Below, piece by piece: positions 1 to 27,114 of a DNA stretch of 64,000 nt (the stretch's first letter is position 1; the number at the start of each line of letters is the position of its first letter). The notes under the pieces are model-generated. The model was not told where the DNA came from. It saw only the letters and a list, made by a program, of their open reading frames with translations, and did no database searches. Made by a program: the position numbers and the translations under genes. This DNA is from Clostridia bacterium (GTDB lineage: Bacteria > Bacillota > Clostridia > Monoglobales > Monoglobaceae). Location of the stretch: positions 28,899 to 92,898 of the forward strand of contig JAZQUY010000007.1 in assembly GCA_045631525.1 (NCBI GenBank). Reading direction: 5' to 3'.

Positions 1-3000
1 GAGTCTGTATTTGTAAAGCTTCGTCTTCATGCAGCTTATGATAATGGTACTGGCAAAACTATATACGTGTACACACAAAACTCCGGCAATGCCAGAGCCG
101 GACTTAGTACGGTAGATGAAGCATTGACGAATAAGGTTGATAATGATTCTACTAGTGCTCCGGGTATGGATATAATTCTGGAAATGAAGGCCGGTGGCTT
201 TGATGTCTACACAAAGGCAGATGGTTCTGATGTGTGGTCGAAGGATTATACACTCAAAGGATATCAGTCTAATTCAGGAAACGATAAGCTTTGTCTTTGG
301 TATGGCGTGGCTGTAAGCAGTGTAAAGGTATACAAAAAGAATTTTAGTGCAGCGGCAGGTGCTGCAGCTAACTGCGGTGACGGTGACTATGTATTGGCGA
401 CATTTGATGCCAGCAATGCGAATGACCGTGCTATGCTTACTGTAGATAATGGCTCTGTACAGACCACAACATTTGGAGATGGAACATATGCCCATGCGGA
501 AAGTGGCAACTGGCTTCAAGTACCCCAGATATCACCCGCTATCCCAGATACAGGGTCTGTATATGTAAAATACCAGCTTCATGCCATTGATGATAATGGA
601 GCAGGCAAGGTTCTATATCAGTACACACAAAGTTCCGGAGGCAGAAGAGCCAGCAGGACTTTGAATAATACTGAAATCGGAAATAACAGACTTCTTACAA
701 GCTCTGCTGCCGGCGTGGAGGTAATTTTTGAATTCACAGCAGACGGTCACACCAACTATGTGAGAACAGCAGGCGATGATGAAATATGGACATTGCTTGA
801 AGAAACAAAGACATATTCCCAAAATGCTTCACTCCAAATACTCAATCTTCAGTATGGTCTTGGTATAAGCAAGGCTGTTGTATACAAAAAGGTTGATGCT
901 GCGACAAGCGCATTCAATGCTGCATCAAAGAATAACGATGCAACAGCTATGGGAACAGCTCTCTCAACCTATGCTACAAATTACGGCATTAATTTGACAA
1001 AGCTTGATAATGTGACAAATGACAATGCAGTTTATGCAAGATTGTTCAATAAGAACTTTGCAACAGCTGCAGAGGTTGCTGCTGTATTTGATGCGGCTGT
1101 TACAGCTCAGATTGGCGCAGAATTTGACGGCGACTATGTTGAAGGCGAAGATGAAATCATTTTGACACTTGATACAAGCACGATTACCACCTCAACGGAT
1201 GGTGCAACTATTGAGTCAGCTATATGCAGATGGTACATATGTGTATGCAAATGGTACAAACGCGTATGCGACCATTCCGGTGAAACCCACACTTCCAACG
1301 GGTGAGGATAAGCTATTTTTGAAATTCCGCACTCACGCAACAGATGATGCGGGATATGCACATACATATATGTATTTCAATCACTCAGGCACAGGACCAA
1401 TGAGAATTACAGGTAATTTCAGTACTTTTCTTCCTGAAGCAGGTATTTCGTTCAGTACAACCGCTCCGGGTGTAGATAATATTTATGAAGTAACTGCTAC
1501 AGGTTATAAGCACTATGCAAAGTCTGTTGGCACTGACAGTTGGATATTTGTCAGAGAAGGCGAATTTGCTACCGGTGGTGAAGGACAATTCCAGATGGGT
1601 GGCAGCATGGGTATCAGCAGCTATATTGCATACACAAAGCTTGACTCGCGTGTAAAGGCTGTCAATGAGATTACATCAGCGTCAGATATGGAAACGGCTG
1701 TAATGACAACATATAGTGACGCCATTGGAACAAGCGCATCTGATTTGACAGGTGTTCAAAACCGTACAGCAGTTTTTGAAAAGATGGTTGAAAAAAGACC
1801 CTTTGAAAGTCTTGGGGATATTCGTGAAAAGCTTCTGACAACAGTAGTAGCACAGAAGGCTCTTGAGCATGTGTTGTTGAATGATTCTGATATTCTCGCA
1901 GAAAATGACAAGGTATATGTGAGTGAACCCTTCGATGCTATGAGTTCTCAAATAAGCATAGCCGGGAATATTACAGTAAGTAACGGAGAGGCTTATGTGG
2001 CAACCGATGGCGATCTTTTCCTCCCTGTTGCTGGTGGTATGAAAGGAAAGATAGCGCGAATAGTCTTCAAACCGGATAATGAAACAACGCTGCTTAATAT
2101 TATGTGCTATGATGTTTATGTGGATGCAAACACGCCAAACCGCTATTACAAATCATTGAGAGGTCTTCCCAATGCTTGGCATGAGGCTATTATGTATGCA
2201 TATGAGGATTCTACATATTTGTGGTACAGAAATATTGATGCAAACGGCGCATGGCAGTCGACCGAAATCGGAAGCAAAAGTATCCATAATACCGCTGGGT
2301 ATATTGGTATAAGATTGATAAACAATTACGGTGGCGTGACCTATGACGAGGTTATAGCATACAACGATTTCTATTCAGGTTATAGTGTCACAGAAAATGG
2401 TAACAACATTGAACTGGACGGTAAGTTATACTACAGCATTCCCGGAGTTGAAAAATCAAGAAATGCTCAGTTTATATTTGCTACCTACAACAAACAGTAT
2501 GGTTATACATCCCTTGTTGATATTACCAAAAAGACCGTGGTACCGGCAACAGAGGAAATTGTTGACAAGACTTATTCATACAACGCAACCACAGATAACT
2601 ATGCGGTTATGTTATGGGATAGCACAGACACAGGTATTGTACTCGGCGAGATTAGTGGATACAAAACACCAAACAAGCTTGGAGAGGCTGAAGAAAGCAC
2701 ACTTGGAGAAGGTGTGATTGACTTTGCGAGACATTTCAATGATGCTATTATTTCGGGCAATGTCGGTCAGGACTACGTAAGTACACCGGTTACTATTTCT
2801 ATAGCTGACGCAGGAGGTACAGTTGTTGCTGCAGCTCAGACGACAACAAACCTGAAGGGCGCATTTGAGGTTAATATAGGAATTGATGCAGGCAACTTAG
2901 CCGGCGGAAGCTATACAGTTAAGGTAAGATGCAAAGATGTGGAAGATAGCGATACAGTTAACCTTTGCGGAACAGACGTGAATTACAATGCAATCAGTTC

Positions 3001-5210: not shown

Positions 5211-5320
5211 GCGTGCGAGGCATATTTTATACGCAGCGTATCTCATAGCGAAGCTATTTCACATTGCGCAGCAATATTTCACGCCCGAGGGGTATTTCAC
5301 TTGCCGCAGGTAAATTTCAA
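5211..5320. repeat. Degenerate tandem array: six units of a GC-rich mini-palindrome followed by a TATTTCAC-like octamer, period 16-20 bp
   Basis: Octamers at 5223 (TATTTTAT), 5239 (TATCTCAT), 5255, 5275, 5293 (all TATTTCAC) and 5313 (AATTTCAA). Spacers are small palindromes: ACG-CAG-CGT, AGC-GAA-GCT, TTGC-GCA-GCAA, CCC-GA-GGG, CC-GCA-GG. Confidence 0.55.
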
Positions 5321-5323
5321 ATG

Positions 5324-5355
5324 AAAAAAGACTATTCCGAAGAATAGTCTTTTTT
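5324..5355. terminator. Bidirectional rho-independent terminator (ends the tRNA operon on the minus strand)
   Basis: AAAAAA-GACTATTC-cgaa-GAATAGTC-TTTTTT: 8 bp stem, 4 nt loop, A-tract and T-tract flanks. It abuts the 3' end of tRNA-Gln. Confidence 0.8.
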
Positions 5356-5356
5356 C

Positions 5357-5430
5357 TGGCTGCCGGACTAGGATTCGAACCCAGACAAACAGAGTCAGAG
5401 TCTGCTGTGCTACCTTTACACAATCCGGCA
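5357..5430 (-). tRNA. tRNA-Gln (anticodon CUG)
   Basis: The reverse complement folds as a 74 nt cloverleaf: acceptor UGCCGGA/UCCGGCA with U1:A72, anticodon loop CU-CUG-AC, T-loop GGGTTCGAATCC, encoded 3' CCA. Confidence 0.85.
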
Positions 5431-5461
5431 ATATTAAATTGTCTGTAAATAAAAAAGTATT

Positions 5462-5546
5462 TGGTGCGAGCAGTGGGACTTGAACCCACACGTCGGTTGA
5501 CACACGCCCCTCAAACGTGCCTGTCTGCCTATTCCAGCATGCTCGC
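5462..5546 (-). tRNA. tRNA-Leu (anticodon GAG), class II with long variable arm
   Basis: 85 nt: acceptor GCGAGCA/TGCTCGC, 3 bp D-stem with GAATAGGCAGA loop, anticodon stem CACGT/GCGTG with loop TT-GAG-GG, variable arm GTC-aacc-GAC, T-loop GTGGGTTCAAGTCCCAC, 3' CCA. Confidence 0.85.
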
Positions 5547-6166: not shown

Positions 6167-7753
6167 TTTATCCAATGAGTCCAGATAGTCTTCGAAATTA
6201 CTTTTTATTACAGTTACACGGGGGCCATAGATAACCTGAACACCAGAGCCACTCTTTATTACGCCAGATGCACCGCTTTGACGAAGAACGGCGTCTTTAA
6301 CCTTTGAACTGTCTTTCACCGTAACCCTGAGCCTTGTAGCACAGCAGTCCACATTCACAAGGTTATCCTTGCCACCAAGACCCTCAAGGATAAGAGACGA
6401 TTTGTCTTCTTTTGCGGCGTTTACGTCCTTTCTTGTGTAAAGCTTGGTTTCAGCCTCATCGTCCTCACGACCAGGGGTGACAAAGTTGAATTTTCGGATG
6501 AGGTAACGGAAAAGGAAGTAGTAAACAATGAAATAAATAATACCTACCCAGATGATGTTTATCCAGTGTGTCTTTGCGTTGCCCTGCAAAATTCCAAAGA
6601 GGAAGAGGTCAATTACACCACCTGAGAATGTCATACCTACACCTACATCAAGGATGTGCATCAGCATAAACGATATACCGGCAAGCACACTGTGGATGAC
6701 ATAAAGTATGGGAGCTACAAACAAAAAGGTAAATTCCAGAGGCTCGGTTATACCGGTCAGGATGGATGTGAGTGCTGCGGAGAGCAAAAGACCTCCGGCA
6801 ACCTTCTTTTTGGTGGGTTTTGCCACGGTGTACATTGCAAGAGCGGCACCGGGAAGACCAAATATCATAAACGGGAATTTTCCACTCATAAAGCGTGTGG
6901 CTTCAACCGAGAACTGAGTTGTGTTGGGTGACGCCAGCTGTGCAAAAAAGATGTTTTGTGCACCCTGAACGGTTGCTCCGTCGATAACCATACTACCGCC
7001 AAGCCCTGTCTGCCAGAATGGAATATAAAATACGTGATGGAGGCCAAAGGGAATAAGACCTCTTTCGATAGTTCCGTAAATAAGTGTGCCAAAATATCCC
7101 GAATTTAGAACCAGACCGCCGAGAGAATATATTGCTCTTTGGATATACGGCCAGATAAAGTACATTGCAAGACCTACCAGAATATAAACAAAGGTGGATA
7201 TAATGGGGATAAATCTGACACCGCCAAAAAACGAGATAACGGTGGGGAGCTCAATTTTGTAAAAACGGTTGTGAAGAGCCGCTACACCGAGACCTACTAT
7301 TATACCACCAAAAACACCCATCTGGAGAGATTGAATACCAACGACATTGGCAACCGTACCTTCAAGCATTGCACCTTCGGCAAGCTGACCATTGAGGCGG
7401 AGGAGGGTGGAAATTGTTTGGTGCATAACAAAGAATGCTATTGCTGCCGAAAGAACAGCAGTTCCGTGCTCTTTTTCTGCCATACCCAAGGCAACACCCA
7501 GAGCAAAGATAAGTGGCAGATTTCCAAAGATAATATCACCGGTCTGGGCAAGTACCTGCATTACGGAGTTTAAAAAAGTGCCGGGACCTAAAATCGCGGT
7601 GAGGTTGTATGCCTCAATTGTTGTGGTATTGGTAAGAGATGCGCCGATGCCCAGAAGAAGTCCTGCAATGGGGAGAAGCGCAATGGGAAGCATAAAAGAA
7701 CGACCGACTCTTTGGAGGACGCTGAATAGTCCGTTTTCGCCTTTAGATTTCAT
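6164..7753 (-). CDS. PTS glucose/N-acetylglucosamine-family EIICB component
   Basis: 529 aa polytopic EIIC followed by a C-terminal EIIB domain with the phospho-Cys motif NVDCCATRLRVTVKD. Confidence 0.85.
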   Translation of the reverse strand: MKSKGENGLFSVLQRVGRSFMLPIALLPIAGLLLGIGASLTNTTTIEAYNLTAILGPGTFLNSVMQVLAQTGDIIFGNLPLIFALGVALGMAEKEHGTAVLSAAIAFFVMHQTISTLLRLNGQLAEGAMLEGTVANVVGIQSLQMGVFGGIIVGLGVAALHNRFYKIELPTVISFFGGVRFIPIISTFVYILVGLAMYFIWPYIQRAIYSLGGLVLNSGYFGTLIYGTIERGLIPFGLHHVFYIPFWQTGLGGSMVIDGATVQGAQNIFFAQLASPNTTQFSVEATRFMSGKFPFMIFGLPGAALAMYTVAKPTKKKVAGGLLLSAALTSILTGITEPLEFTFLFVAPILYVIHSVLAGISFMLMHILDVGVGMTFSGGVIDLFLFGILQGNAKTHWINIIWVGIIYFIVYYFLFRYLIRKFNFVTPGREDDEAETKLYTRKDVNAAKEDKSSLILEGLGGKDNLVNVDCCATRLRVTVKDSSKVKDAVLRQSGASGVIKSGSGVQVIYGPRVTVIKSNFEDYLDSLDK

Positions 7754-17637: not shown

Positions 17638-18483
17638 TTAAAAATTTTTCAGGCTTTCTTTGATTTTTTCTTTTAGATATGGGAAGTCAAGGTCTTTTTC
17701 AAGGAAGATTCTATCCGCCCAAAGCCCTTGATATATAAGCATATCAAAGCCGTTGAGAGTTTCAAAACCACGCTTCTTTGCTTCCTTCAAAAAGTTGGTT
17801 TCCTCGGGGTTATAAATAAGGTCATAAACCAAAGTTCCATCTTTCAGGTGGTTAAAGAAGGAGAAATCTTCATAGTCTTTATCCACGCCCGACATACCAA
17901 GAGGTGTTGCGTTGATGAGAAGGTCACAGTCATTTACCACACTTGATATGGTATCAATATTGAAAATATCTGCATTTGCGTCACATTCGCTCAAAAACTG
18001 AGCGATAGTCTGTGCCCTTGACAAAGTGCGATTCAAAATGGTGATTTTTTTGGCACCCTCCATTTCGGATTTTAGAGCAATGGTTGAGGCAGCACCCCCT
18101 GCACCAAGGATGACAATATTTTTGCCACTAAAATCAAATCCTTGTGTTTTCACAGCCAAGGCAAAACCCTGACCGTCGGTGTTGTAGCCAAAAAGCTTTC
18201 CATCCTCAATTTTTACAGTATTAACAGCATCAAAAGCTTTAGCATCTTCGTCAATATAGTCAAGAAAGCCGATGATATCTTTTTTGTGGGGCATAGTCAG
18301 GCTGAATCCGTTTATACCCATAGTTTTTGCTTCGTCAAGGTAATTTTCAAGTTCCCCTTTTTTTACACGGACCCTTCGATATTCAAAGTCAAGACCAAGC
18401 TCTGTAAGGACAGTGCTGTGTATTATTGGAGACTTGCTGTGTGATACCGGGTCACCGATTATGTCAAGTTTAATTTTTTGCAT
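17638..18483 (-). CDS. aroE: Shikimate dehydrogenase
   Basis: GDPVSHSKSPIIHS, ILGAGGAASTIA NADP motif, FGYNTDGQGF. Start at MQKIKLDII, overlapping the aroQ 3' end. Confidence 0.85.
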   Translation of the reverse strand: MQKIKLDIIGDPVSHSKSPIIHSTVLTELGLDFEYRRVRVKKGELENYLDEAKTMGINGFSLTMPHKKDIIGFLDYIDEDAKAFDAVNTVKIEDGKLFGYNTDGQGFALAVKTQGFDFSGKNIVILGAGGAASTIALKSEMEGAKKITILNRTLSRAQTIAQFLSECDANADIFNIDTISSVVNDCDLLINATPLGMSGVDKDYEDFSFFNHLKDGTLVYDLIYNPEETNFLKEAKKRGFETLNGFDMLIYQGLWADRIFLEKDLDFPYLKEKIKESLKNF

Positions 18484-18928
18484 CACCAGATGCCTCCTCC
18501 AAGAGATAATCCATTGCAAGAAGATAGCCACGGAAACCAAGACCTGCTATCTGACCTGTGCAGGCAGGGGCGGTAACTGACTTGTGCCGGAACTCCTCAC
18601 GCTTATATACATTGCTTATGTGAACTTCTACGGCAGGGAGATTTACTGACGCAAGTGCATCACGGATTGCATAGCTGTAATGGGTATATGCACCGGGGTT
18701 TATGATGATGGCATCATAATTTCCAAGAGAGTGGAGGATGAAATCAATAAGTTCACCCTCGCTGTTGCTTTGGAGGACCGTCGCTTCAACACCTTTTTCA
18801 TTTGCATAGTTTTCAATGAGTGCTTCAAGGTCAGCATAGCTTTCGCTTCCATAAATTCCTACTTCGCGGGCACCAAGCATATTGAGATTTGGACCATTTA
18901 GCACCATAATTTTCATTTTTTCAGCCAT
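18470..18928 (-). CDS. aroQ: Type II 3-dehydroquinate dehydratase
   Basis: VLNGPNLNMLGAREVGIYG, INPGAYTHYSYAIRDAL, VEVHISNVYKREEFRH. Confidence 0.9.
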   Translation of the reverse strand: MAEKMKIMVLNGPNLNMLGAREVGIYGSESYADLEALIENYANEKGVEATVLQSNSEGELIDFILHSLGNYDAIIINPGAYTHYSYAIRDALASVNLPAVEVHISNVYKREEFRHKSVTAPACTGQIAGLGFRGYLLAMDYLLEEASGDAKN

Positions 18929-19424
18929 TTTGAATTTTCACCTCGTTTATTATTTTTTCGACTGCTGAGTTTAAATCGGCAGTGTTTTGAATTTCAATAT
19001 CACAAAAATCTTTATACTTTTCGATGCGTCTTTCGTAAAGTTCAAAAAGCCGTTCTTTTCCGCTTTTGAGTAGTGGACGATTTGATGAATCAATGTCGCT
19101 TGCAATAAGCTCTACCGGGCGGTTTATGAAAATCACAATGCCGCCTTGTTTCAGGATATCTTTATTCTCATTTCGTTCCACAATGCCGCCGCCGGTGGAA
19201 ATGATAGCATCATTTTTCTCACAAAGCCTGGCTACTATTTTCGTTTCTTCATCTCTGAATGTGCTTTCGCCGTAGGATGCGAAAAAGTCTGTGATTTTTA
19301 TATTTTTTGATTCTTCGAAAACTGCATCAGAGTCAAAAAATTCTTTCCCTAAAGCCATGGCGAGCTTTTTGCCTATGGAAGTTTTTCCACAACCGGGCAT
19401 ACCTATGAGAATGATATTTTTCAT
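18921..19424 (-). CDS. aroK: Shikimate kinase
   Basis: P-loop IILIGMPGCGKTSIGKKLA, about 167 aa. ATG at 19424 (an alternative GTG at 19433 overlaps the pheA stop). Confidence 0.85.
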   Translation of the reverse strand: MKNIILIGMPGCGKTSIGKKLAMALGKEFFDSDAVFEESKNIKITDFFASYGESTFRDEETKIVARLCEKNDAIISTGGGIVERNENKDILKQGGIVIFINRPVELIASDIDSSNRPLLKSGKERLFELYERRIEKYKDFCDIEIQNTADLNSAVEKIINEVKIQNG

Positions 19425-19429
19425 AAAAA

Positions 19430-20587
19430 TCACAGCCTTTCTGATGGAGAGCCCGCGGCGTGATAGTTGCCTAAAATTTTCAATTGGGTTGTATTCTCCT
19501 GTATGGCGGATATGACGTTTTGGACATCACTATCAAGCAGATTGCCCTCGAAATCTATGAAAAACATATATTCAAAATTCTTGTCGCATCGGGGTCGGGA
19601 TTCTATTTTTACAAGATTTAGCCCGCTGTTTTTAAATTCTGAAAGGATTTGACAAAGCGCGCCGCTTTCGTTAGGCAGTGTCAAAAGAACACTGATTTTA
19701 TTGCAGCTTTCATTCAAAATTCCGCGTTTTGCAATGGCCACAAAGCGTGTAACGTTGTTTTGATTTGTGCTGATGTTTTCAGCCAAAACGCTGAGCCCGT
19801 AAATTTCGGCTGTACGCTTGTCTGCGATTGCTGCAACAGAGGTATCGCTAAGACCTGCTACATACTTTGCGGCAAGTGCGGTGTTGTGGTATGCAGAAAA
19901 TTTCATCTTTGGGTAGTTCTTGAAAAATTCTTTGCATTGAAGATAACCTTGCTCGTGTGAATAAACCTGACGAATGGAGTCAAGGGTTGCACCTTTTGGT
20001 GCAACAAGACAGTGGGTTATTGAAACATCCACCTCGCTTACAATATAAAGCTCACGATTTTCCAAAAGGTCAAAGACCCCTGAAATCGAGCCAGTTGACG
20101 AATTTTCAAAGGGCAGAACTGCATAATCTGCCTGTCCCTCCTGAAGTGCGTCGAGAGTTTCGGCAAAGGTCATAACATTTATACGTTTTGTATCATCACC
20201 AAAAATCTTCATAAGAGCCGTTTCGCTGTTGGCACCAGCCACTCCCTGAAAAACCACGGTGGGGTTTGTTTTGAGACCGCATTGGTCAAAGCCCTCAAAA
20301 AGAGAATTTTCCAAATTGCCATCTGACAAAAGCTGTCTTTGAGATTTTCGGCTGATTGCCATTATCGAAGAGAAAAAGTCACGGACAAACGCTGCCTTGT
20401 CAGATGAAACAGAGGAAGCCTTTTTGTCAAGAATTTCACTTTCCCGTGCCTTGTCCAACACCGGAAGAGCGTTTTTCTTTTTGTAATCAGCCACTTTTTT
20501 TGAACATTCCATTCTTTTCAGGAAAAGAGGGAGAATCTCGCTGTCAATTTCGTCTATTTCGCATCTTAGAGTTTCAAGTTCGTTCAT
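19430..20587 (-). CDS. pheA: Bifunctional chorismate mutase / prephenate dehydratase with C-terminal ACT domain
   Basis: N-terminal CM_2 helix region (LRCEIDEIDSEILPLFLKRMECSKKVADYKKKN), PDT domain (VVFQGVAGANSE), ACT region (LVKIESRP...FFIDFEG). Confidence 0.85.
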   Translation of the reverse strand: MNELETLRCEIDEIDSEILPLFLKRMECSKKVADYKKKNALPVLDKARESEILDKKASSVSSDKAAFVRDFFSSIMAISRKSQRQLLSDGNLENSLFEGFDQCGLKTNPTVVFQGVAGANSETALMKIFGDDTKRINVMTFAETLDALQEGQADYAVLPFENSSTGSISGVFDLLENRELYIVSEVDVSITHCLVAPKGATLDSIRQVYSHEQGYLQCKEFFKNYPKMKFSAYHNTALAAKYVAGLSDTSVAAIADKRTAEIYGLSVLAENISTNQNNVTRFVAIAKRGILNESCNKISVLLTLPNESGALCQILSEFKNSGLNLVKIESRPRCDKNFEYMFFIDFEGNLLDSDVQNVISAIQENTTQLKILGNYHAAGSPSERL

Positions 20588-20608
20588 TTTGGGTTCTCAC
20601 TTTCAAAT

Positions 20609-21673
20609 TCAAAGTATGCTGTCAAGAACAGCAAGTGCCGCGCCGCATTCCACTACTACCGCTGCGCGCTGAACAATGCAGGGATCGTGACGACCTTTTA
20701 TTTCTATGGTTGCATTTTCCATTTTTTCTGTGTCAACAGTGTTTTGCGTTTGCGCGATTGATGGGGTTGGCTTTATTGCCACCGAAAAGAGAATGGGCAT
20801 CCCGTTTGATATTCCGCCGTTTATTCCGCCGTTGTTGTTTGTAGTGGTAAAAATCTTTTCGCCATCAGTCTGGAAAGGGTCGTTGGCAACACTGCCCTTG
20901 AGGTTTGCAAAGTCAAAGCCTTTTCCAAATTCAATCCCTTTGACTGCGGGGATTGAAAACATCATTGACGAAATAGTGCTTTCAAGTGATGCAAAAAACG
21001 GTGAGCCACATCCTGCAGCAAGACCAAGGACAGCACATTCGATTATTCCGCCAACGGAATCTTTTTCGCTTGCAGCACTCAGGATTGCCTGTTTCATTTT
21101 TTCACCTGTCTCGTCCGAGATAACGGGGAAATCTTTCAAAGAAAGTTCATTCAGCAACTCTTTTGAAAGAGGAGAGTCCATAAAAGATGTTTCTTTTATG
21201 TCATAGATTTGTTTTATGTGAGAGCCAATGGAAATGCCTTTTTGCGACAAAAGCTGTTTGGCAATAGCTCCTGCAAAAACCAATGGCGCGGTAATTCTTC
21301 CCGAAAAGTGTCCGCCACCACGAAAATCGTGAGAGTTACCGTATTTCTGAAAACCGGTGAAGTCAGCGTGACCTGGGCGGAGAAGATTTTTGTTATAGTC
21401 CTTTGATTTTGTATTGGTATTTTTTATGATTCCGCAGATTGGTGTTCCTGTGGTGACAGAGTTCATAACACCAGAGAGGATTTCAACCTCATCAGCTTCT
21501 TTTCTTGGAGTTGAAAGGGCGTTTTGACCGGGAGCTCTTCGGAGCATTTCATGGCGAATAAAATCCATATCAAGAGAAAGTCCTGATGGAATTCCGTCAA
21601 GCACAACGCCAATAGCAGCCCCATGGGATTCACCGAATATACTAATCTTTATTTTGTTGCCCCATGTATTCAT
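20609..21673 (-). CDS. aroC: Chorismate synthase
   Basis: FGESHG, RPGHADF, SGR motifs; 354 aa. Confidence 0.9.
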   Translation of the reverse strand: MNTWGNKIKISIFGESHGAAIGVVLDGIPSGLSLDMDFIRHEMLRRAPGQNALSTPRKEADEVEILSGVMNSVTTGTPICGIIKNTNTKSKDYNKNLLRPGHADFTGFQKYGNSHDFRGGGHFSGRITAPLVFAGAIAKQLLSQKGISIGSHIKQIYDIKETSFMDSPLSKELLNELSLKDFPVISDETGEKMKQAILSAASEKDSVGGIIECAVLGLAAGCGSPFFASLESTISSMMFSIPAVKGIEFGKGFDFANLKGSVANDPFQTDGEKIFTTTNNNGGINGGISNGMPILFSVAIKPTPSIAQTQNTVDTEKMENATIEIKGRHDPCIVQRAAVVVECGAALAVLDSIL

Positions 21674-22944
21674 TTTATATTACCTCCAAGTCTTGCATAA
21701 TCATCAAAAAATGCGGGATATGATTTTGTTATTGCTTTTTTTGCACCTTTTATGAAAATGTCGCCTTCACTGCGGCAGGCGGCGATGGAAAGTGCCATTG
21801 CAATGCGGTGGTCGTTCCATGAAGCAAGGTCACATCCCCGAAGAGTTTGTTTTCCTGATATTTCCAGAAAGTCATCACCCTCTGTTATATCAGCGTCCAT
21901 TTTTGAAAGCTCTGATGCCATTGCAGCAAGACGGTCGCTTTCCTTGAGCCTGAGCCTTGCGGCATTTTCAATGCGGCTTTTTCCTTTGCAGAAAGAAAGC
22001 AGAACTGAAATGATTGGAACAAGGTCAGGAATTTCGTCTGCATCAACCGTGATGCCGTGCATAAGTGCAGATGAACTTGCTTTCAAAGTGTCATTATCAA
22101 TCCAAGTGACTTTTGCACCTGTTTTTTCAAGAATTTCAGTTATTTTTTTGTCGCCCTGAAGACTATCTTTTTTTAGACCCTTACACGAAATATTACAGCC
22201 AAGAGCGCCGGCAACAAGGAAAAATGCCGCCTGTGAGAAATCGCCCTCCACAGTATAATTTGTGGCAATATATTTCTGGTTTCCCTTGATTGTAAAGGTT
22301 TTATAGTCAAAGTTTTCAATTTCAATACCGAAAGATTTTAAAACGTCAAGTGTGATATCTATATAACCTTTTGAGGAGAGGTTTCCCTCTATTTTGATTA
22401 CGCTGTCGCCGTCAAGAATGGGAAGAGCAAACAAAAGTCCGGTCAAAAATTGTGAACTGACACTGCCGTCCAAAGAGAACTCGCCGGAGGTGAGTTTTCC
22501 TGAAAGGGTCAGGACATTTTTAGTTTTATGATATTTGATGCCTTTTTTCTGAAAAATTTCAAAGTACGGTTCAAGAGGCCTTTCCATAAGCTTTCCATGA
22601 CCTTTAAAACTTGCACTGTTTCCAAGAGCCAAAGCTATGGGAATAAAAAACCGCAAGGTAGAGCCGCTTTCTCCACAGTCAAGCACGGGAGGTTCAGCAG
22701 AATGTGTATTATTTGTTCTTTTGAAGAAAACGGCTTGCTTTTTTTTGTCGTATTTTGCATTTCCACCCAAAGCTTTCACACAGGAAAGTGTGGCTTCGAT
22801 GTCTTTCGAAAACGCTATGTTTGACACAGTGCAAGGTGAATTTGACAAAAAAGCCGAGATGATTGCTCTGTGAGCAAAGCTTTTCGAGGGTGGGATTTTC
22901 ACAGTGCCCAAGAGGGGCGAAGGGGTGATTGTTACCATATCCAT
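21670..22944 (-). CDS. aroA: 3-phosphoshikimate 1-carboxyvinyltransferase (EPSP synthase)
   Basis: 424 aa with PPSKSFAHRAII, GESGSTLRF, LKESDRL, NDHRIAMALS. Confidence 0.9.
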   Translation of the reverse strand: MDMVTITPSPLLGTVKIPPSKSFAHRAIISAFLSNSPCTVSNIAFSKDIEATLSCVKALGGNAKYDKKKQAVFFKRTNNTHSAEPPVLDCGESGSTLRFFIPIALALGNSASFKGHGKLMERPLEPYFEIFQKKGIKYHKTKNVLTLSGKLTSGEFSLDGSVSSQFLTGLLFALPILDGDSVIKIEGNLSSKGYIDITLDVLKSFGIEIENFDYKTFTIKGNQKYIATNYTVEGDFSQAAFFLVAGALGCNISCKGLKKDSLQGDKKITEILEKTGAKVTWIDNDTLKASSSALMHGITVDADEIPDLVPIISVLLSFCKGKSRIENAARLRLKESDRLAAMASELSKMDADITEGDDFLEISGKQTLRGCDLASWNDHRIAMALSIAACRSEGDIFIKGAKKAITKSYPAFFDDYARLGGNIK

Positions 22945-23987
22945 ACCTTGCCTTTCTCGGTGGGCACCAAAGATACCTTGCCTATTTTTTCAGGGAGTAT
23001 GAGGGATACAAGATTACCCTCACCTTTTTTATCTACTTTTATTGCATCAAGAAGTGATTTTTCGTCTATATCAATTTTGGTGGGAAGCCCAAAGGCTTCA
23101 ATCAATTTTTCTATACGCTCTGATGTCCCCAAGGGGGTAATTCCCGTCTTTTCGCCGTACTCTGCTGCCATGACCATGCCACACGCCACAGCTTGTCCGT
23201 GGGAATAATCCTTAAAATTATATTTTTTTTCGATAGCATGACCAAAGGTGTGTCCAAAATTTAAAATCATACGCTTTCCTGTATCGAGTTCGTCTTCTTC
23301 AACAACCATTTTTTTAAGCTCACAGCAACGGGAAATCACATCTTCTATGATTTCTCCTATTTTGATACGGGATGGAGCTGTTTCAAATTTTTCAAAAAGC
23401 TGCTCATCAAGAATAACCCCATATTTTATTGCCTCAGCCATACCGTCTGAGAAGATTTCGTCAGACAGCGTATCAAGACAGAGGGGGTCAATAATAACGA
23501 GCTTTGGCTGATAAAAAGCGCCAACTAAATTTTTGCCTTGAGGGAGGTTTATTGCAACCTTTCCACCAACGCTGCTGTCAATTTGTGCAAGAAGAGTTGT
23601 GGGTATCTGAACAAAAGGAATTCCGCGAAGCAGTGTTGAGGCGCAAAAACCTGCAAGGTCACCCACGATTCCGCCGCCCAGGGCTATTATTAAATCGCGT
23701 CTTGTGATTCCAAACTCAAGCATTTTGTCATAAAGAACAGAAAGGGTTTCGGGGGATTTTGAGCCTTCGCCCGGGGCAACAGTAATAAGAGTAGTTGAAA
23801 AGCCGTTTTCTCTAAGCGAAGATATAAGGGTTTCGCTGTAAAGAGGAGCAACATTGCTGTCGGTGACTATTGCCGCTTTGCAGGGATTAATCAGTTCTTT
23901 GATGAGCTTTCCGCTGTTTTTAAGTAGTCCTTTTTCAATTTTTATTTCATATTCCCGACCGGGAAGGTCTATACAAAGATTTTGCAT
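22932..23987 (-). CDS. aroB: 3-dehydroquinate synthase
   Basis: GGGIVGDLAGFCAST, SSVGGKVAINL, FGHTFGHAIE metal/NAD motifs. Start at the ATG (MQNLCIDL) after a GGAGG RBS. Confidence 0.85.
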   Translation of the reverse strand: MQNLCIDLPGREYEIKIEKGLLKNSGKLIKELINPCKAAIVTDSNVAPLYSETLISSLRENGFSTTLITVAPGEGSKSPETLSVLYDKMLEFGITRRDLIIALGGGIVGDLAGFCASTLLRGIPFVQIPTTLLAQIDSSVGGKVAINLPQGKNLVGAFYQPKLVIIDPLCLDTLSDEIFSDGMAEAIKYGVILDEQLFEKFETAPSRIKIGEIIEDVISRCCELKKMVVEEDELDTGKRMILNFGHTFGHAIEKKYNFKDYSHGQAVACGMVMAAEYGEKTGITPLGTSERIEKLIEAFGLPTKIDIDEKSLLDAIKVDKKGEGNLVSLILPEKIGKVSLVPTEKGKVWIW

Positions 23988-24048
23988 ATTTGTGAAAATC
24001 CTCCTGAATATACAATACATTTCATTTTAACACAACATTAAAAAAATT

Positions 24049-24918
24049 TCAATAATTTTCGGGCTCTTTGTTTTGCATTGTGAGTTTATTGTCTCTCACC
24101 GAAGAAAGAAGCTTGATAAGTTCTTCCTTGTCGTTATTTTCTATTGCAGCTTTGAATTTTTGCAGAGAACTCAAAAAGATAGAAAGTTCATCAAGCAAAA
24201 AGTCTTTGTTTTCAAGGAATAGCTGACTCCAGAGCATTGGGTTTATGTTGGCGATTCGGGTACAGTCACGAAAGGCTCCGGCTGTATACGCACGGTTCAT
24301 TTTGGTGTTATAATCAAGACAAAGGGCGGAGGCGGATACGTGCATCAAATCGCTTGTATATGCGATTACACTGTCGTGTTCTTCGGGAGTGCTTTCGGTA
24401 ATCCTTGTTGCACCGATGTATTTTGCCATTTCCTTCACCAATTCTATTGAATGAATCGAGGATGAGGGGATGGGGGTCACAATAAATCCGCACATACCAA
24501 AAAGCTCAGGTGCGGCACTGTCAAAGCCGTCAGTTTCTTTTCCTGCCATAGGATGCCCACCTACATAATCACAGCCGTCGGGCAGGATTTTTGCGATTTC
24601 TTCGGCGAGCTTTGTTTTAACGCCGCAGACGTCGGTTATAACAGCACCTTTTTTAAAATGGACACGATTTTCTGCAATAATCTTTGTTATAAGCTCAGGA
24701 TACACACAAAGAATAACCAGGTCAGCATTTTCTATTGCAGGCGCAGGGGTTTCCCATACCTCGTCCACAGCATTTTTTGAAAGTGCTTTTCTTCGGGTTT
24801 CGGGATTTATGTCACATCCTGAAATTTTTGCACTTTTGAATCCGTGCAGGGCATAAGCCATAGAGCCGCCGATAATACCAAGCCCGATTATTGCGATTTT
24901 AAAGTGGTTTTCCTCCAT
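24049..24918 (-). CDS. tyrA: Prephenate dehydrogenase
   Basis: Rossmann IAIIGLGIIGGSMAYAL and GGHPMAGKE catalytic region; 289 aa. Confidence 0.85.
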   Translation of the reverse strand: MEENHFKIAIIGLGIIGGSMAYALHGFKSAKISGCDINPETRRKALSKNAVDEVWETPAPAIENADLVILCVYPELITKIIAENRVHFKKGAVITDVCGVKTKLAEEIAKILPDGCDYVGGHPMAGKETDGFDSAAPELFGMCGFIVTPIPSSSIHSIELVKEMAKYIGATRITESTPEEHDSVIAYTSDLMHVSASALCLDYNTKMNRAYTAGAFRDCTRIANINPMLWSQLFLENKDFLLDELSIFLSSLQKFKAAIENNDKEELIKLLSSVRDNKLTMQNKEPENY

Positions 24919-24948
24919 AACAAGATACCTTTACCTTTCAAGTATAAA

Positions 24949-25968
24949 TTATTTTATTTCCTTCCCAAAGTGAACGCTCATAGCTCTGAGTTTAGTCATA
25001 AGACTTTCGTACTGAGGAAGGTCGAGAGACTGGGCACCGTCACAAAGAGCATTTTTGGGGTCATTGTGAATCTCCACAATTATGCCGTCAGCACCTACCG
25101 CAAGGGCAGCAAGGGAGAGGGGTTCGACCATCCAGCTTATGCCCGCAGAGTGAGAGGGGTCCACCACAACAGGCAGGTGACTCATCTTTTTCACTGCAGG
25201 GATGGCACTGAGGTCAAGGGTGTTTCTGGTATAGGTTTCGAAAGTCCTTATTCCACGCTCACAAAGAATAACGTTGTGATTTCCACCTGCCATAATGTAT
25301 TCGGCTGACATCAGCCATTCTTCAATGGTTGCTGAAAGTCCGCGTTTCAAAAGGATGGGCTTTTGGATTTTGCCAAGCTCTTTGAGAAGGTCAAAGTTCT
25401 GCATATTTCTTGCCCCAACCTGAATAATGTCAACATTTTCATTGAAGGTTTCAACCAGAGAGGGACACATTATTTCAGTTACAATAGGGAGATTTGTTTC
25501 GCGGCGTGCCTCCTTCAAAAGCTCAAGTCCCTCAAGCTCAAGGCCCTGGAAAGAATAAGGAGACGTGCGGGGTTTGTAGGCGCCACCGCGGAGAAAGGAT
25601 GCCCCGCTTTCCTTTACGCCTTTTGCAACTGTGAGAATTTGTTCTTTTGATTCAACACTGCAGGGGCCTGCCATAACAACAAAGCTTTTGCCGTCACCGA
25701 TTTTTGCATTGCCAACTTCTATTACTGTATTGTTGGGGTGAAATTTTCGGTTTGCTTTTTTGAATGGCTCCTGGACACGCATAATGCGTTCCACATCAGG
25801 GTCAAGAAGAAGACGGTCGGCATCCAGGGCGTGAGTGTCGCCCACAAGACCCATAACGATGCTGTCTTTTCCTCGGATAAGGTCGATGTCAAGACCTTTT
25901 GCCTTGAAATCCGCCATCATCATATTTAACTTTTCTTCTGCTATTGTTGTTTTTGTTACGATTACCAT
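24949..25968 (-). CDS. aroF: 3-deoxy-7-phosphoheptulonate (DAHP) synthase, class I-beta with N-terminal ferredoxin/ACT-like regulatory domain
   Basis: N-terminal approx. 70 aa (MVIVTKTTIAEEKL...IVMGLVGD) resemble the Thermotoga-type regulatory domain. Catalytic core has VMAGPCSVES, RGGAYKPRTSPYSFQG, VDPSHS. Confidence 0.85.
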   Translation of the reverse strand: MVIVTKTTIAEEKLNMMMADFKAKGLDIDLIRGKDSIVMGLVGDTHALDADRLLLDPDVERIMRVQEPFKKANRKFHPNNTVIEVGNAKIGDGKSFVVMAGPCSVESKEQILTVAKGVKESGASFLRGGAYKPRTSPYSFQGLELEGLELLKEARRETNLPIVTEIMCPSLVETFNENVDIIQVGARNMQNFDLLKELGKIQKPILLKRGLSATIEEWLMSAEYIMAGGNHNVILCERGIRTFETYTRNTLDLSAIPAVKKMSHLPVVVDPSHSAGISWMVEPLSLAALAVGADGIIVEIHNDPKNALCDGAQSLDLPQYESLMTKLRAMSVHFGKEIK

Positions 25969-25993: not shown

Positions 25994-26030
25994 AAATAAA
26001 AAAGAGAGCCCGCTGTATAACGAGCTCTCT
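25994..26030 (-). terminator. Intrinsic terminator in the aro-operon leader (attenuator)
   Basis: Minus strand reads AGAGAGCUCG-uuauacag-CGGGCUCUCU (10 bp, one G.U) followed by UUUUUUAUUU. It ends about 6 nt before the AAGAAAGG RBS of the DAHP synthase gene. Confidence 0.8.
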
Positions 26031-26049
26031 GATAAAGTTTAAAATTGTG

Positions 26050-26190
26050 CTAAATGGTGGCAGCACATATCAGCCCGTTATACCGTAAATTTTTGGCAAA
26101 GTAAAAATAACCGTAGCTAAAATAAAAGCTAAGGCTGATAAAGTAAAAGAAATATTTAACTGCATGAAGAAGATTTTCTGCAAGTTTCAT
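26050..26190 (-). CDS. Putative 46-aa Phe/Tyr-rich leader peptide of the aromatic amino-acid operon
   Basis: ATG at 26190 preceded by GAAAGGA. Translation is MKLAENLLHAVKYFFYFISLSFYFSYGYFYFAKNLRYNGLICAATI, then TAG. 13 of residues 13-31 are F (7) or Y (6). It lies between a promoter and a terminator and is too short for the ORF track. Confidence 0.6.
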   Translation of the reverse strand: MKLAENLLHAVKYFFYFISLSFYFSYGYFYFAKNLRYNGLICAATI

Positions 26191-26223
26191 ATTCTAAAAG
26201 TATCCTTTCACCATTTTCTAAAA

Positions 26224-26253
26224 ATTTTAGCACAGTAAATCGATAAAGTCAAG
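26224..26253 (-). promoter_or_regulatory. Sigma-A-type promoter of the aro operon leader
   Basis: Minus strand reads TTGACT-17 nt-TAAAAT. Confidence 0.6.
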
Positions 26254-26268
26254 ACTTTTTTGAAATTT

Positions 26269-27114
26269 TTATAAACAAAATTTTTTTCGGTATTCGGTAG
26301 GAGAAAAACCGGTACTCTTTTTGAAAATACGGCTGAAATAAAGAGAATTTTCGTAACCAACTATGGAAGAAATTTCAGAAACATTATACTGAGTGTTTTC
26401 AAGAAGATATTTGGCATTTGTAATTCTCATGGATAGAATGTATTGCATAGGAGAAAGACCGGTATATTTTTTGAAGCTCCTGATGAACCAGCAAAGGCTT
26501 ATATGCCGTGATGTGGCATATTGTTTAATATCTATGTCGTGAGAGTAATTCTCGCTGAAATACTGTATAGCAAGCTCGGTTTCTTTTTTTGTTGTGTTGG
26601 CTTTGGAAACAGAATTTAACGCATAACGCTCTATAAGACAAAGTACATTTTGCAAAATCAGTGGGGTGATTTTGCAAAAGTCAAATTCTGCGGCTTGTAA
26701 CTCGCTTATTATTCGCTGAAACAGGAGATTGAAATCGGTTGAAATTCCGGTAAAAAAAATATTTGATTTGAGGTTAAGCGCGGCTAAAATATTTTCTGCG
26801 TCGAAACCTGTAAAGTGTACCCAGAAAACTTCGGGCTTGTCCTCGAGATAATATGTATAGTTTTGCTCCTCATCAGGACGATAAAGGACCATAGTTCCCG
26901 CAGGCAGAAGCTTTTCTTCACCATCGAAAAAGAAATGTGCCTTGCCTGAAGCAATATAAAGGAGCTGAAAGTCACGTCTTCCTGTGGGCCGACAGGTGAT
27001 AAAGGATTTGCGGCTTAAGAGGCGGTAGTTTCCGCAGCTTTTCACCACAAGGGGCTGACTTAAATCGGCTGTATCATCAAGCGAGTTGTTGAGATATGCG
27101 GCTTTTGCGTACAA
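26269..27114 (-). CDS. AraC-family transcriptional regulator (divergent from galK)
   Basis: 281 aa with cupin-like N-domain and AraC HTH (ISLCWFIRSFKKYTGLSPMQYILSMRITNAKYLLENT...GYENSLYFSRIFKKSTGFSPTEYR). TTG start 7 nt after AGGAGG. Confidence 0.85.
   Translation of the reverse strand: MYAKAAYLNNSLDDTADLSQPLVVKSCGNYRLLSRKSFITCRPTGRRDFQLLYIASGKAHFFFDGEEKLLPAGTMVLYRPDEEQNYTYYLEDKPEVFWVHFTGFDAENILAALNLKSNIFFTGISTDFNLLFQRIISELQAAEFDFCKITPLILQNVLCLIERYALNSVSKANTTKKETELAIQYFSENYSHDIDIKQYATSRHISLCWFIRSFKKYTGLSPMQYILSMRITNAKYLLENTQYNVSEISSIVGYENSLYFSRIFKKSTGFSPTEYRKKFCL

Follow-up and report, generated by a model that had tools for sequence, protein, structure and literature searches.

How transcription enters the nine-gene aromatic amino acid operon of a Clostridia bacterium was the question raised by the 64,000-nt stretch of contig JAZQUY010000007.1 analyzed here (the window). 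Aromatic amino acid operons of Firmicutes are usually described as being under T-box, TRAP or repressor control, and leader-peptide attenuation is textbook knowledge in Proteobacteria. In the window, the first gene of the operon, aroF, is preceded by a short open reading frame (ORF) rich in phenylalanine (Phe) and tyrosine (Tyr) codons and by an intrinsic terminator. Judged from its sequence and from that of its relatives, this element is probably (at roughly 80%) a ribosome-mediated leader-peptide attenuator, which would respond to how far tRNA-Phe and tRNA-Tyr are charged and would regulate all nine genes.

The coordinates of the leader refer to the minus strand of the window and are collected in Table 1. 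Translation confirmed the 46-codon ORF described by the earlier sequence-only reading, with its 13 Phe and Tyr residues in a run of 19. This density was the sole case among the 1,816 stop-to-stop frames of the window, in which the runner-up had 10 aromatics. The tripeptide Phe-Tyr-Phe occurs three times in the peptide, at codons 15-17, 22-24 and 29-31. The Shine-Dalgarno (SD) sequence GAAAGGA was predicted to pair with the anti-SD at -9.4 kcal/mol. The promoter TTGACT-17-TAAAAT was likewise recovered by a consensus scan, with 10 of 12 consensus matches and a TG extension; it starts at 26252, so that the earlier position, 26253, was off by one base. An NCBIfam scan of every product agreed with the nine genes listed before, aroF encoding 3-deoxy-D-arabino-heptulosonate-7-phosphate (DAHP) synthase and pheA chorismate mutase-prephenate dehydratase. 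Therefore, with its SD sequence, ATG and 46 codons, the element has the translatable leader ORF of ribosome-mediated attenuators, and since the operon makes chorismate, Phe and Tyr, the codons enriched in the leader are those of its end products.

The RNA downstream of the promoter contains segments that compete for pairing. A terminator scan found a hairpin of 12 pairs at 26030..26003, followed by a T-run. Every base pair of the three helices proposed by the sequence-only reading was verified as standard. Helix 1:2 and the terminator both occur in the unconstrained minimum free energy (MFE) fold of the leader, for which z was -5.0 relative to dinucleotide shuffles. Among duplexes with the 5' arm of the terminator, the 12-bp antiterminator, helix 2:3, scored best, at -17.1 kcal/mol (z = -4.3).

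Table 1. Features of the aromatic operon and its leader in the window.
Feature	Coordinates	Strand	Sequence or basis
Promoter, SigA/Sigma-70 type (predicted)	TTGACT 26252..26247; -10 26229..26224	-	TTGACT, 17-nt spacer, TGc-TAAAAT; consensus scan
Shine-Dalgarno sequence of leader ORF	26209..26203	-	GAAAGGA; from sequence, 12 nt ahead of ATG at 26190
Leader ORF	26190..26050	-	46 codons + TAG (26052..26050); translation MKLAENLLHAVKYFFYFISLSFYFSYGYFYFAKNLRYNGLICAATI, then stop
Regulatory codon run, codons 13-31	26154..26098	-	7 Phe + 6 Tyr, no tryptophan (Trp)
Segment 1	26140..26133	-	UAUCAGCC, codons 17-20; pairs with 26075..26068; overlaps 5' arm of conserved hairpin
Conserved hairpin	26136..26109	-	AGCC.UAGCU - UUUAUUUU - AGCUA.GGUU; loop with Phe-Tyr-Phe codons
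Segment 2	26083..26068	-	GUAUAACGGGCU (26083..26072, codons 36-40), antiterminator 5' strand; GGCUGAUA (26075..26068), partner of segment 1
Segment 3	26030..26015	-	AGAGAGCUCGUUAUAC, terminator 5' arm + loop; common to antiterminator and terminator
Helix 1:2	26140..26133/26075..26068	-	standard pairs throughout
Helix 2:3 (antiterminator)	26083..26072/26026..26015	-	standard pairs throughout
Helix 3:4 (terminator stem)	26030..26021/26012..26003	-	standard pairs throughout
Intrinsic terminator	26030..25994	-	AGAGAGCUCG / CGGGCUCUCU then UUUUUUAUUU; terminator scan
Regulated operon (proposed), aroF-tyrA-aroB-aroA-aroC-pheA-aroK-aroQ-aroE	25968..17638	-	NCBIfam scan, nine products

The conservation of the leader was analyzed across 80 loci gathered by an AroF search of one-genome-per-species contigs, of which 77 aroF upstream regions were examined. 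A short ORF with at least 7 aromatics per 12-residue window, lying within 400 nt upstream of aroF, was present in 42 of the 77 regions, compared to 0/77 for the reverse complement and 0/77 for shuffled sequences. The expected recurrence of a Phe/Tyr-rich ORF before aroF in relatives was thus borne out. The closest relative, a metagenome-assembled genome (MAG) of Oscillospiraceae (L001) whose AroF is 85% identical, has an almost identical leader. The leaders of Clostridium species and C. difficile read ...FYFMFWGFYFSAGYFF..., with one Trp codon added, and Trp lies within the core in 26 of 44 leaders. Further members were found in Negativicutes (Pelosinus, Phascolarctobacterium and Megasphaera), in a Synergistaceae MAG and in MAGs labelled Fusobacteria and Spirochaete; the MAG labels need caution.

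The signals for translation are kept along with the codons. The start ATG was aligned in 35 of 39 leaders, and an SD sequence stands ahead of nearly all of them; in the apparent exceptions, an upstream 'MED' (AUGGAGGAU) is itself the SD sequence of the aligned ATG. All gaps in the aligned core measure 3 or 6 nt, so the frame is preserved, and the N- and C-termini of the peptide are unconserved as protein. A hairpin with a T-run terminator stands before the first gene in 49 of 53 leaders.

The leader is also tied to aromatic biosynthesis genes rather than to one particular gene. Leaders located via the peptide lie immediately upstream of aroF or tyrA, and the operons that they head start with aroF, tyrA, pheA, aroB or an aroE-like gene. 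In four relatives with a window-type leader (L084, L085, L088 and L089), tyrA-aroB comes directly after the leader with no aroF between; the order is leader-pheA-aroF-tyrA in L106 and leader-aroB-aroC-aroE/K in L142. Among relatives, the leader thus keeps its place in front of the operon while the first gene changes. Crassaminicella thermophila has two DAHP synthase paralogs, both with a leader of their own: one operon runs leader, aroF, T-box and trpEGDCFBA, and the other leader and aroF-tyrA-aroB-aroA-aroC-pheA. A covariance model of the core (R1) gave 57 matches in 625 kb, the strong ones all just upstream of the first aro gene. Furthermore, a gene-independent DNA pattern of the core (TTTTAYTTTAGCNNNGGYTAT) retrieved 120 metagenome stretches, and 41 of them had an aro gene within 700 nt downstream (aroF in 38, pheA in 2, aroB in 1), with one more stretch having an aroE-like gene. 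The remaining matches of the pattern lie inside unrelated ORFs and look like chance.

The placement of the antiterminator strand connects the RNA switch to the position of the ribosome. For these statistics, five loci (L028, L046, L055, L061 and L078) were excluded since the terminator finder had taken an internal hairpin and U-tract there. In 30 of 39 loci, the strand that pairs best with the terminator 5' arm and loop reaches into the final 30 nt of the leader ORF, compared to 19.5 loci expected under uniform placement (P ~3e-4), and the midpoint of this strand lies at a median of 19 nt ahead of the ORF end. In Clostridium, the C-terminal 'LMS' is encoded by UUAAUGAGU, which is complementary to ACUCAUUA, the conserved arm of the terminator. 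Because these codons complement the terminator arm, the apparent conservation of the peptide C-terminus is an RNA feature.

To compare the helices in close relatives, seven fetched leaders of the window type (peptides 63-73% identical) were aligned with the window and L001; the covariation counts for helices 2:3 and 3:4 rest on 7 distinct window-type sequences. Helix 2:3 was paired in 100% of 84 cells, compared to 33-49% for a slid partner. Seven of its 12 pairs vary, with two double changes, from G-C to U-A and from U-A to C-G. Since the covarying bases sit in the loop of the terminator and are unpaired in the terminator conformer, the antiterminator alone explains these changes. Helix 3:4 was paired in 98.4%; 5 of its 9 pairs vary, with one double change from AU to GC. 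Helix 1:2 was paired in 91%, and segment 1 is invariant in the 9 window-type leaders, so its covariation is uninformative; the variation that touches this helix is confined to segment 2 and merely disrupts pairs. Therefore, of the mutually exclusive helices proposed before, 2:3 and 3:4 gained compensatory changes in segments 2, 3 and 4, whereas 1:2 is present in the window and finds no such support in segment 1 or across the family.

Helix 1:2 was accordingly rejected as a family-wide feature, with a mean z of -0.5 and with segment 2 of one subgroup pairing elsewhere. In that subgroup (L027, L047, L060, L025, L038, L081 and L082), codons 2-8 encode an N-terminal 'LIRKE' (CUUAUUAGAAAGGAA) and are complementary to segment 2 (UCCUUUCUAAUGGG), with z down to -4.6. 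This complementarity suggests that the subgroup has a putative anti-antiterminator upstream of the aromatic run and not within it.

A further conserved structure, absent from the sequence-only reading, is a hairpin within the aromatic run. In the window it folds at -9.8 kcal/mol (z = -3.3) and is followed by the U-rich tract UAUUUU. Fixed codons encode the non-aromatic core residues (S, W/L, G/S ... S, A/Y, G), namely AGC for Ser (30/30), GCU for Ala (20/20) and GGC or GGU for Gly, and these codons build the hairpin. The Phe and Tyr codons vary synonymously across the family (TTT/TTC, TAT/TAC), and UUU UAU UUU is the family consensus of the loop. The hairpin was paired in 78.6% compared to 19-50% for slid controls in a hand-made alignment, and in 80.3% compared to 22-48% in a model-derived alignment of 50 distinct sequences, which is fitted to the model. 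In that fitted alignment, the covariation of the hairpin was 0.263 compared to 0.177 +/- 0.015 and was reached by 0 of 500 shuffles, and 6 of the 10 pairs were altered on both sides. Its architecture recurs in Megasphaera and in a high-GC variant from Oscillospiraceae, the latter with a wholly different inner stem. The stem contains many G-U pairs (UG in 32 and GU in 24 sequences at two positions), which points to folding as RNA and speaks against a palindrome or operator in the DNA. In leaders of the window type, the nucleotides of the 55-nt aromatic core hardly vary, third codon positions included, despite the divergence of the N-terminal codons and of AroF.

The high-GC variant, found in other Oscillospiraceae (L013, L021, L031, L036, L037, L039-L041, L043, L046, L052, L055, L063, L073 and L074), is shorter, with the core GW(T/A)RFT(G/E/S)xGYF and far fewer aromatic codons. 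It lies ~100-330 nt upstream of aroF; its R1 matches are weak, yet at the expected position. The hairpin of the variant is stronger (-19.7 kcal/mol in L046) and has a single Phe codon in its loop.

The proposed mechanism joins these parts as follows. Transcription would start from the promoter at 26252..26224, and a ribosome would load at the SD sequence and ATG (26209 / 26190) and translate the 46-codon leader, as the conservation of these signals suggests. The hairpin at 26136..26109 and its U-rich tract would probably pause RNA polymerase until the ribosome comes, synchronising both. When aminoacyl-tRNAs are plentiful, the ribosome would trail the polymerase through codons 34-45 and cover segment 2 (26083..26068) as segment 3 emerges, and once the ribosome has gone past, segment 1 could also occupy segment 2. 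With segment 2 occupied, segment 3 would pair with segment 4, the terminator would form, and transcription would end at ~25994-26002, before aroF. When Phe-tRNA or Tyr-tRNA is scarce, the ribosome would stall within codons 13-31 and leave segment 2 free to capture the nascent segment 3 in the 12-bp antiterminator; the terminator would then be blocked and the polymerase would enter the nine genes. Leader translation, stalling, pausing and the regulatory response are what we infer for this element.

The effect of the ribosome position was simulated by folding. When the full leader was folded at equilibrium with the ribosome masked at each codon in turn, the states could not be told apart, the terminator probability being ~0.9-0.97 nearly everywhere. 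This approach was replaced by folding of RNA truncated before the terminator 3' arm, again with the ribosome masked per codon. Forced-antiterminator energies with the mask over segment 2 (codons 38 and 42) are not meaningful and were left unused. In the truncated RNA, segment 3 was held in the 12-bp antiterminator with the ribosome at codons 1-33, which include all aromatic codons, and was free with the ribosome at codons 34-45. Many other members displayed the same drop in segment-3 capture near the ORF end. Taken with the location of the antiterminator strand near the ORF end in most loci (30 of 39), these simulations indicate that the position of the ribosome would select between the conformers, with a caveat for the stop codon of the window type given below. 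The attenuator proposed by the sequence-only reading is thus supported by the recurring ORF, its SD sequence and ATG, the terminator, the placement of the antiterminator strand and the compensatory changes in 2:3 and 3:4.

Several observations weigh against this mechanism. Equilibrium folding preferred the terminator in every ribosome state, at -59.1 compared to -50.8 kcal/mol for the antiterminator, and at -41.8 compared to -40.4 kcal/mol with the ribosome at codon 15. Because the terminator wins at equilibrium, the switch would have to depend on co-transcriptional kinetics, as in classical attenuators. A ribosome resting on the stop codon leaves segment 2 uncovered in leaders of the window type. 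Since only a ribosome at about codons 34-45 covers it, termination needs either close following of the polymerase or helix 1:2, which is unproven. Helix 1:2 is intact in 5 of 9 close relatives and degraded in 4 of 9 (L084 and L085/L088/L089), and family-wide the pairing of the aromatic run with segment 2 is about that of shuffles (mean z -0.5). The z of the 2:3 duplex is itself modest across the family, with a mean of -1.8 and 17 of 39 loci below -2. The SD-to-ATG spacing of 12 nt in the window is rather long, and the near-invariance of the 55-nt core exceeds what a simple stalling model needs. Furthermore, transcription and translation have been reported to be uncoupled in B. subtilis, as cited in PMC8237595, where C. 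difficile is argued to differ.

The fixed core opens the way to an attenuator made of RNA only, in which the U-loop hairpin would be the sensor of a protein, a tRNA or an aromatic ligand and the ORF would be incidental or tolerated. Such a sensor would fit the maintenance of the hairpin at the RNA level, with Ser always AGC, Ala always GCU and G-U pairs tolerated, as well as the near-invariant third codon positions of the window-type core, and it would give a role to a hairpin that has none in the simple stalling model. It leaves unexplained why an in-frame ATG with an SD sequence accompanies nearly all members despite the unconserved N-terminus, why indels keep the reading frame, why aromatic codons with synonymously variable third positions reach far past the hairpin on both sides, and why the antiterminator strand keeps to the end of the ORF. 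No T-box or riboswitch model matched the leader either, and we regard this explanation as unlikely. The opposite emphasis, on the peptide, would make the ORF a stable hydrophobic micro-protein, such as a small membrane peptide, followed by an ordinary or partial terminator without sensing. The 19-residue aromatic and hydrophobic stretch has about the length of a transmembrane helix, and many copies are annotated as small hypothetical proteins. However, the element lies almost exclusively right before aromatic biosynthesis operons on the same strand, the peptide termini are unconserved, and the kept non-aromatic residues are explained by RNA pairing (the AGC, GCU and GGY codons, and LMS as UUAAUGAGU). 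A Pfam or NCBIfam family is lacking, and a terminator between a gene and its following operon is sensible only if conditional, all of which makes a micro-protein quite improbable.

The terminator could also merely end the transcript of the AraC-family gene at 26269..27114, the aro operon starting separately and being unregulated or regulated by a protein, with the switch a coincidence. The terminator scan found no other terminator-like site from the AraC-family stop codon to the leader, and an AraC-family neighbour is also present in L086. This neighbour is missing at almost all other family loci, at which the module of leader and terminator is conserved; a near-consensus promoter separates the AraC-family gene from the leader, and the covariation of 2:3 would be purposeless for a plain terminator. 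Of the explanations considered, we give this one the least credence. The leader-peptide attenuator sensing tRNA-Phe and tRNA-Tyr charging thus remains the preferred reading.

Within the attenuator, the hairpin would by analogy take the role that the 1:2 pause hairpin has in classical attenuators, and it is a candidate pause site for RNA polymerase. A more far-reaching proposal is tentative, and we hold it to be possible rather than probable. The near-invariant hairpin would be a programmed pause, hairpin- or NusG-dependent, at the U-rich tract made by the Phe and Tyr codons, which would hold the polymerase for the lead ribosome and so enable ribosome-dependent attenuation in Firmicute lineages where the polymerase outruns ribosomes. 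The module would then be ancient, common to Clostridia, Negativicutes and other anaerobe phyla, and homologous to uORFC-13-1 of Acholeplasma. In a bolder version, the hairpin may be a second sensor, for a ligand, a protein or a tRNA.

The leader was compared to the entries of sequence and structure databases. A profile of 35 leader peptides matched 159 protein clusters among 5.8 billion proteins, and any name given to them was 'hypothetical protein'; neither NCBIfam nor Pfam has a model for the leader peptide. As had been expected earlier for T-boxes and other leaders, no Rfam model matched the window leader or 12 family loci at the gathering score, the amino-acid leader families (Phe, Leu/Phe, Trp, His, Thr and Leu) included. 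A sensitive Rfam scan (E up to 10) returned noise, the only leader-family match being His_leader with 15 bits, compared to its cut-off of 49, and on the wrong strand. The T-box model RF00230 gave no match in the leader, although it did recover the T-box at L081. A literature search found no published description of this leader family in Clostridia; subscription-only papers may exist. The analysis therefore supports the leader as a further leader-peptide attenuator for Phe, Tyr and often Trp, belonging to a broad family absent from Rfam, Pfam and NCBIfam.

Among known systems, the E. coli leaders pheL-pheA, trpL and hisL share with it end-product codons in a short ORF, the alternative of 2:3 and 3:4, and a hairpin overlapping the regulatory codons. 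They have no sequence or covariance-model similarity to the window leader. Compared to them, the new leader would sense two or three amino acids (Phe, Tyr and, in 26 of 44, Trp) and control the common pathway and not one branch; its segment 2 lies inside the ORF, before the stop codon and not after it, and its 1:2 helix is unconserved. In the same phylum, His leaders have been predicted in the B. cereus group, Peptostreptococcaceae and Erysipelotrichales (PMC2965389, PMC9413887), and a Leu-rich attenuator peptide of S. aureus ilv-leu has been shown, according to PMC5794164. These Firmicute leaders likewise use ribosome-mediated attenuation in place of T-box control; they serve other amino acids and operons, are unrelated in sequence to the new leader and have a narrower taxonomic range.

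Two described elements stand closer to it in gene context. In C. glutamicum, the aroR leader with the tripeptide Phe-Tyr-Phe lies ahead of aroF, and stalling at the Phe/Tyr codons raises transcription, as shown under Phe limitation (Neshat et al. 2014, J Biotechnol 190:55, as summarised in PMC11802643). Compared by description, aroR has the same tripeptide as the hairpin-loop codons of the window and the same position upstream of aroF. It is from Actinobacteria and reportedly has one Phe-Tyr-Phe tripeptide, compared to 13 aromatic codons in the window leader; aroR is experimentally supported, whereas the window element is a prediction from sequence. The motif uORFC-13-1 occurs exclusively upstream of aroF in Acholeplasma and environmental sequences, with 24 representatives (Brewer et al. 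2021, RNA Biol, PMC8632094). Described for it are -35/-10 elements, a ribosome-binding site and start codon, a U-run that codes for Phe, a neighbouring intrinsic terminator and 'another base-paired substructure' backed by covariation (PMC8632094). Matched by description only, the window leader has every one of these features, and the extra substructure fits the conserved hairpin. One difference is in the number of aromatic codons, 'at least one' Phe codon (PMC8632094) compared to 13 in the window leader. Judged from the lack of any match, uORFC-13-1 is apparently absent from Rfam 15. The motif and the Clostridia leaders may be the same family.

In C. difficile 630, a premature 3' end in the aroF 5' untranslated region has been seen experimentally (Fuchs et al. 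2021, PMC8237595). This event was listed among 17 'lacking similarities to conserved riboregulators', with no mechanism given (PMC8237595), and it goes unmentioned in a review of C. difficile riboswitches from 2024. A leader of the family lies directly before aroF in this organism (L032 and L051: MKGILKELTAKLYSFYYFMFWGFYFSAGYFFYKN..., with the terminator GAGAACUCAUUAAUGAGUUCUC and then U6; L051 2934-2962). The premature 3' end is thus an experimental precedent from a family member and lends the attenuator reading indirect support.

If the attenuator is real, it is a widespread and uncatalogued one in which a single element monitors charging with Phe, Tyr and often Trp and governs the entry enzyme and the common pathway. 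Its range would include many Clostridia, among them C. difficile and common gut species, the Negativicutes and apparently some other anaerobe phyla. It offers a testable mechanism for the unexplained premature termination at C. difficile aroF. At least 159 clusters of "hypothetical" small proteins could be re-annotated as leader peptides, and an Rfam or NCBIfam entry would be justified. Because the mechanism requires coupling, the element would be a natural probe of transcription-translation coupling in Clostridia. In metabolic engineering or antimicrobial work, removing this cis element should derepress the shikimate pathway.

One identical core (AFDFSRGYFYFSAGYFTCSK, then aroF) was present in >20 independent contigs, mostly from human-gut metagenomes (e.g. 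L091, L096, L115, L124, L128 and L129), and the protein cluster P0086 was found on at least 1,000 contigs. Therefore, the element is carried by very common organisms.

The T-box of L081, at 7311-7570 with 103.7 bits, lies between the leader-controlled aroF paralog and trpEGDCFBA, so that a leader-peptide attenuator and a T-box seem, from the arrangement, to stand in series in one transcription unit. Megasphaera L061 has a second copy of leader and hairpin (ORF 704-880; R1 779-823, 31 bits; peptide ...YVFTYFSWSSFFAGAGYFAY...), located 2 kb ahead of the leader of aroF and immediately before a gene for a 136-aa ACT-domain (PheB-like) protein at 973-1383 (+). The same locus carries at 1454-2488 (-) a 344-aa ORF that by eye resembles a second DAHP synthase of a different class. 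In L203 (motif at ~7832), the ORF at +180 to +1287 has an AroE-like N-terminus (VIGHPVSQSFSPKIHN) followed by unrelated sequence and could be an assembly chimera or a fusion.

The AraC-family regulator gene of the window (26269..27114, minus strand) is directly upstream of the leader and on its strand. Transcripts running on from this gene would meet the attenuator too. Its counterpart in L086 (92-961) is 56% identical, and the other family loci are without it; the gene was therefore rejected as a component of the system. The tRNA gene after the operon is for tRNA-Ala and is unrelated to the leader. Elsewhere in the window, and in keeping with an origin from gut-associated Clostridia, a Gut-1 RNA motif (RF01706, 59.8 bits) lies at 5251-5546 on the minus strand and adjoins two tRNA genes.

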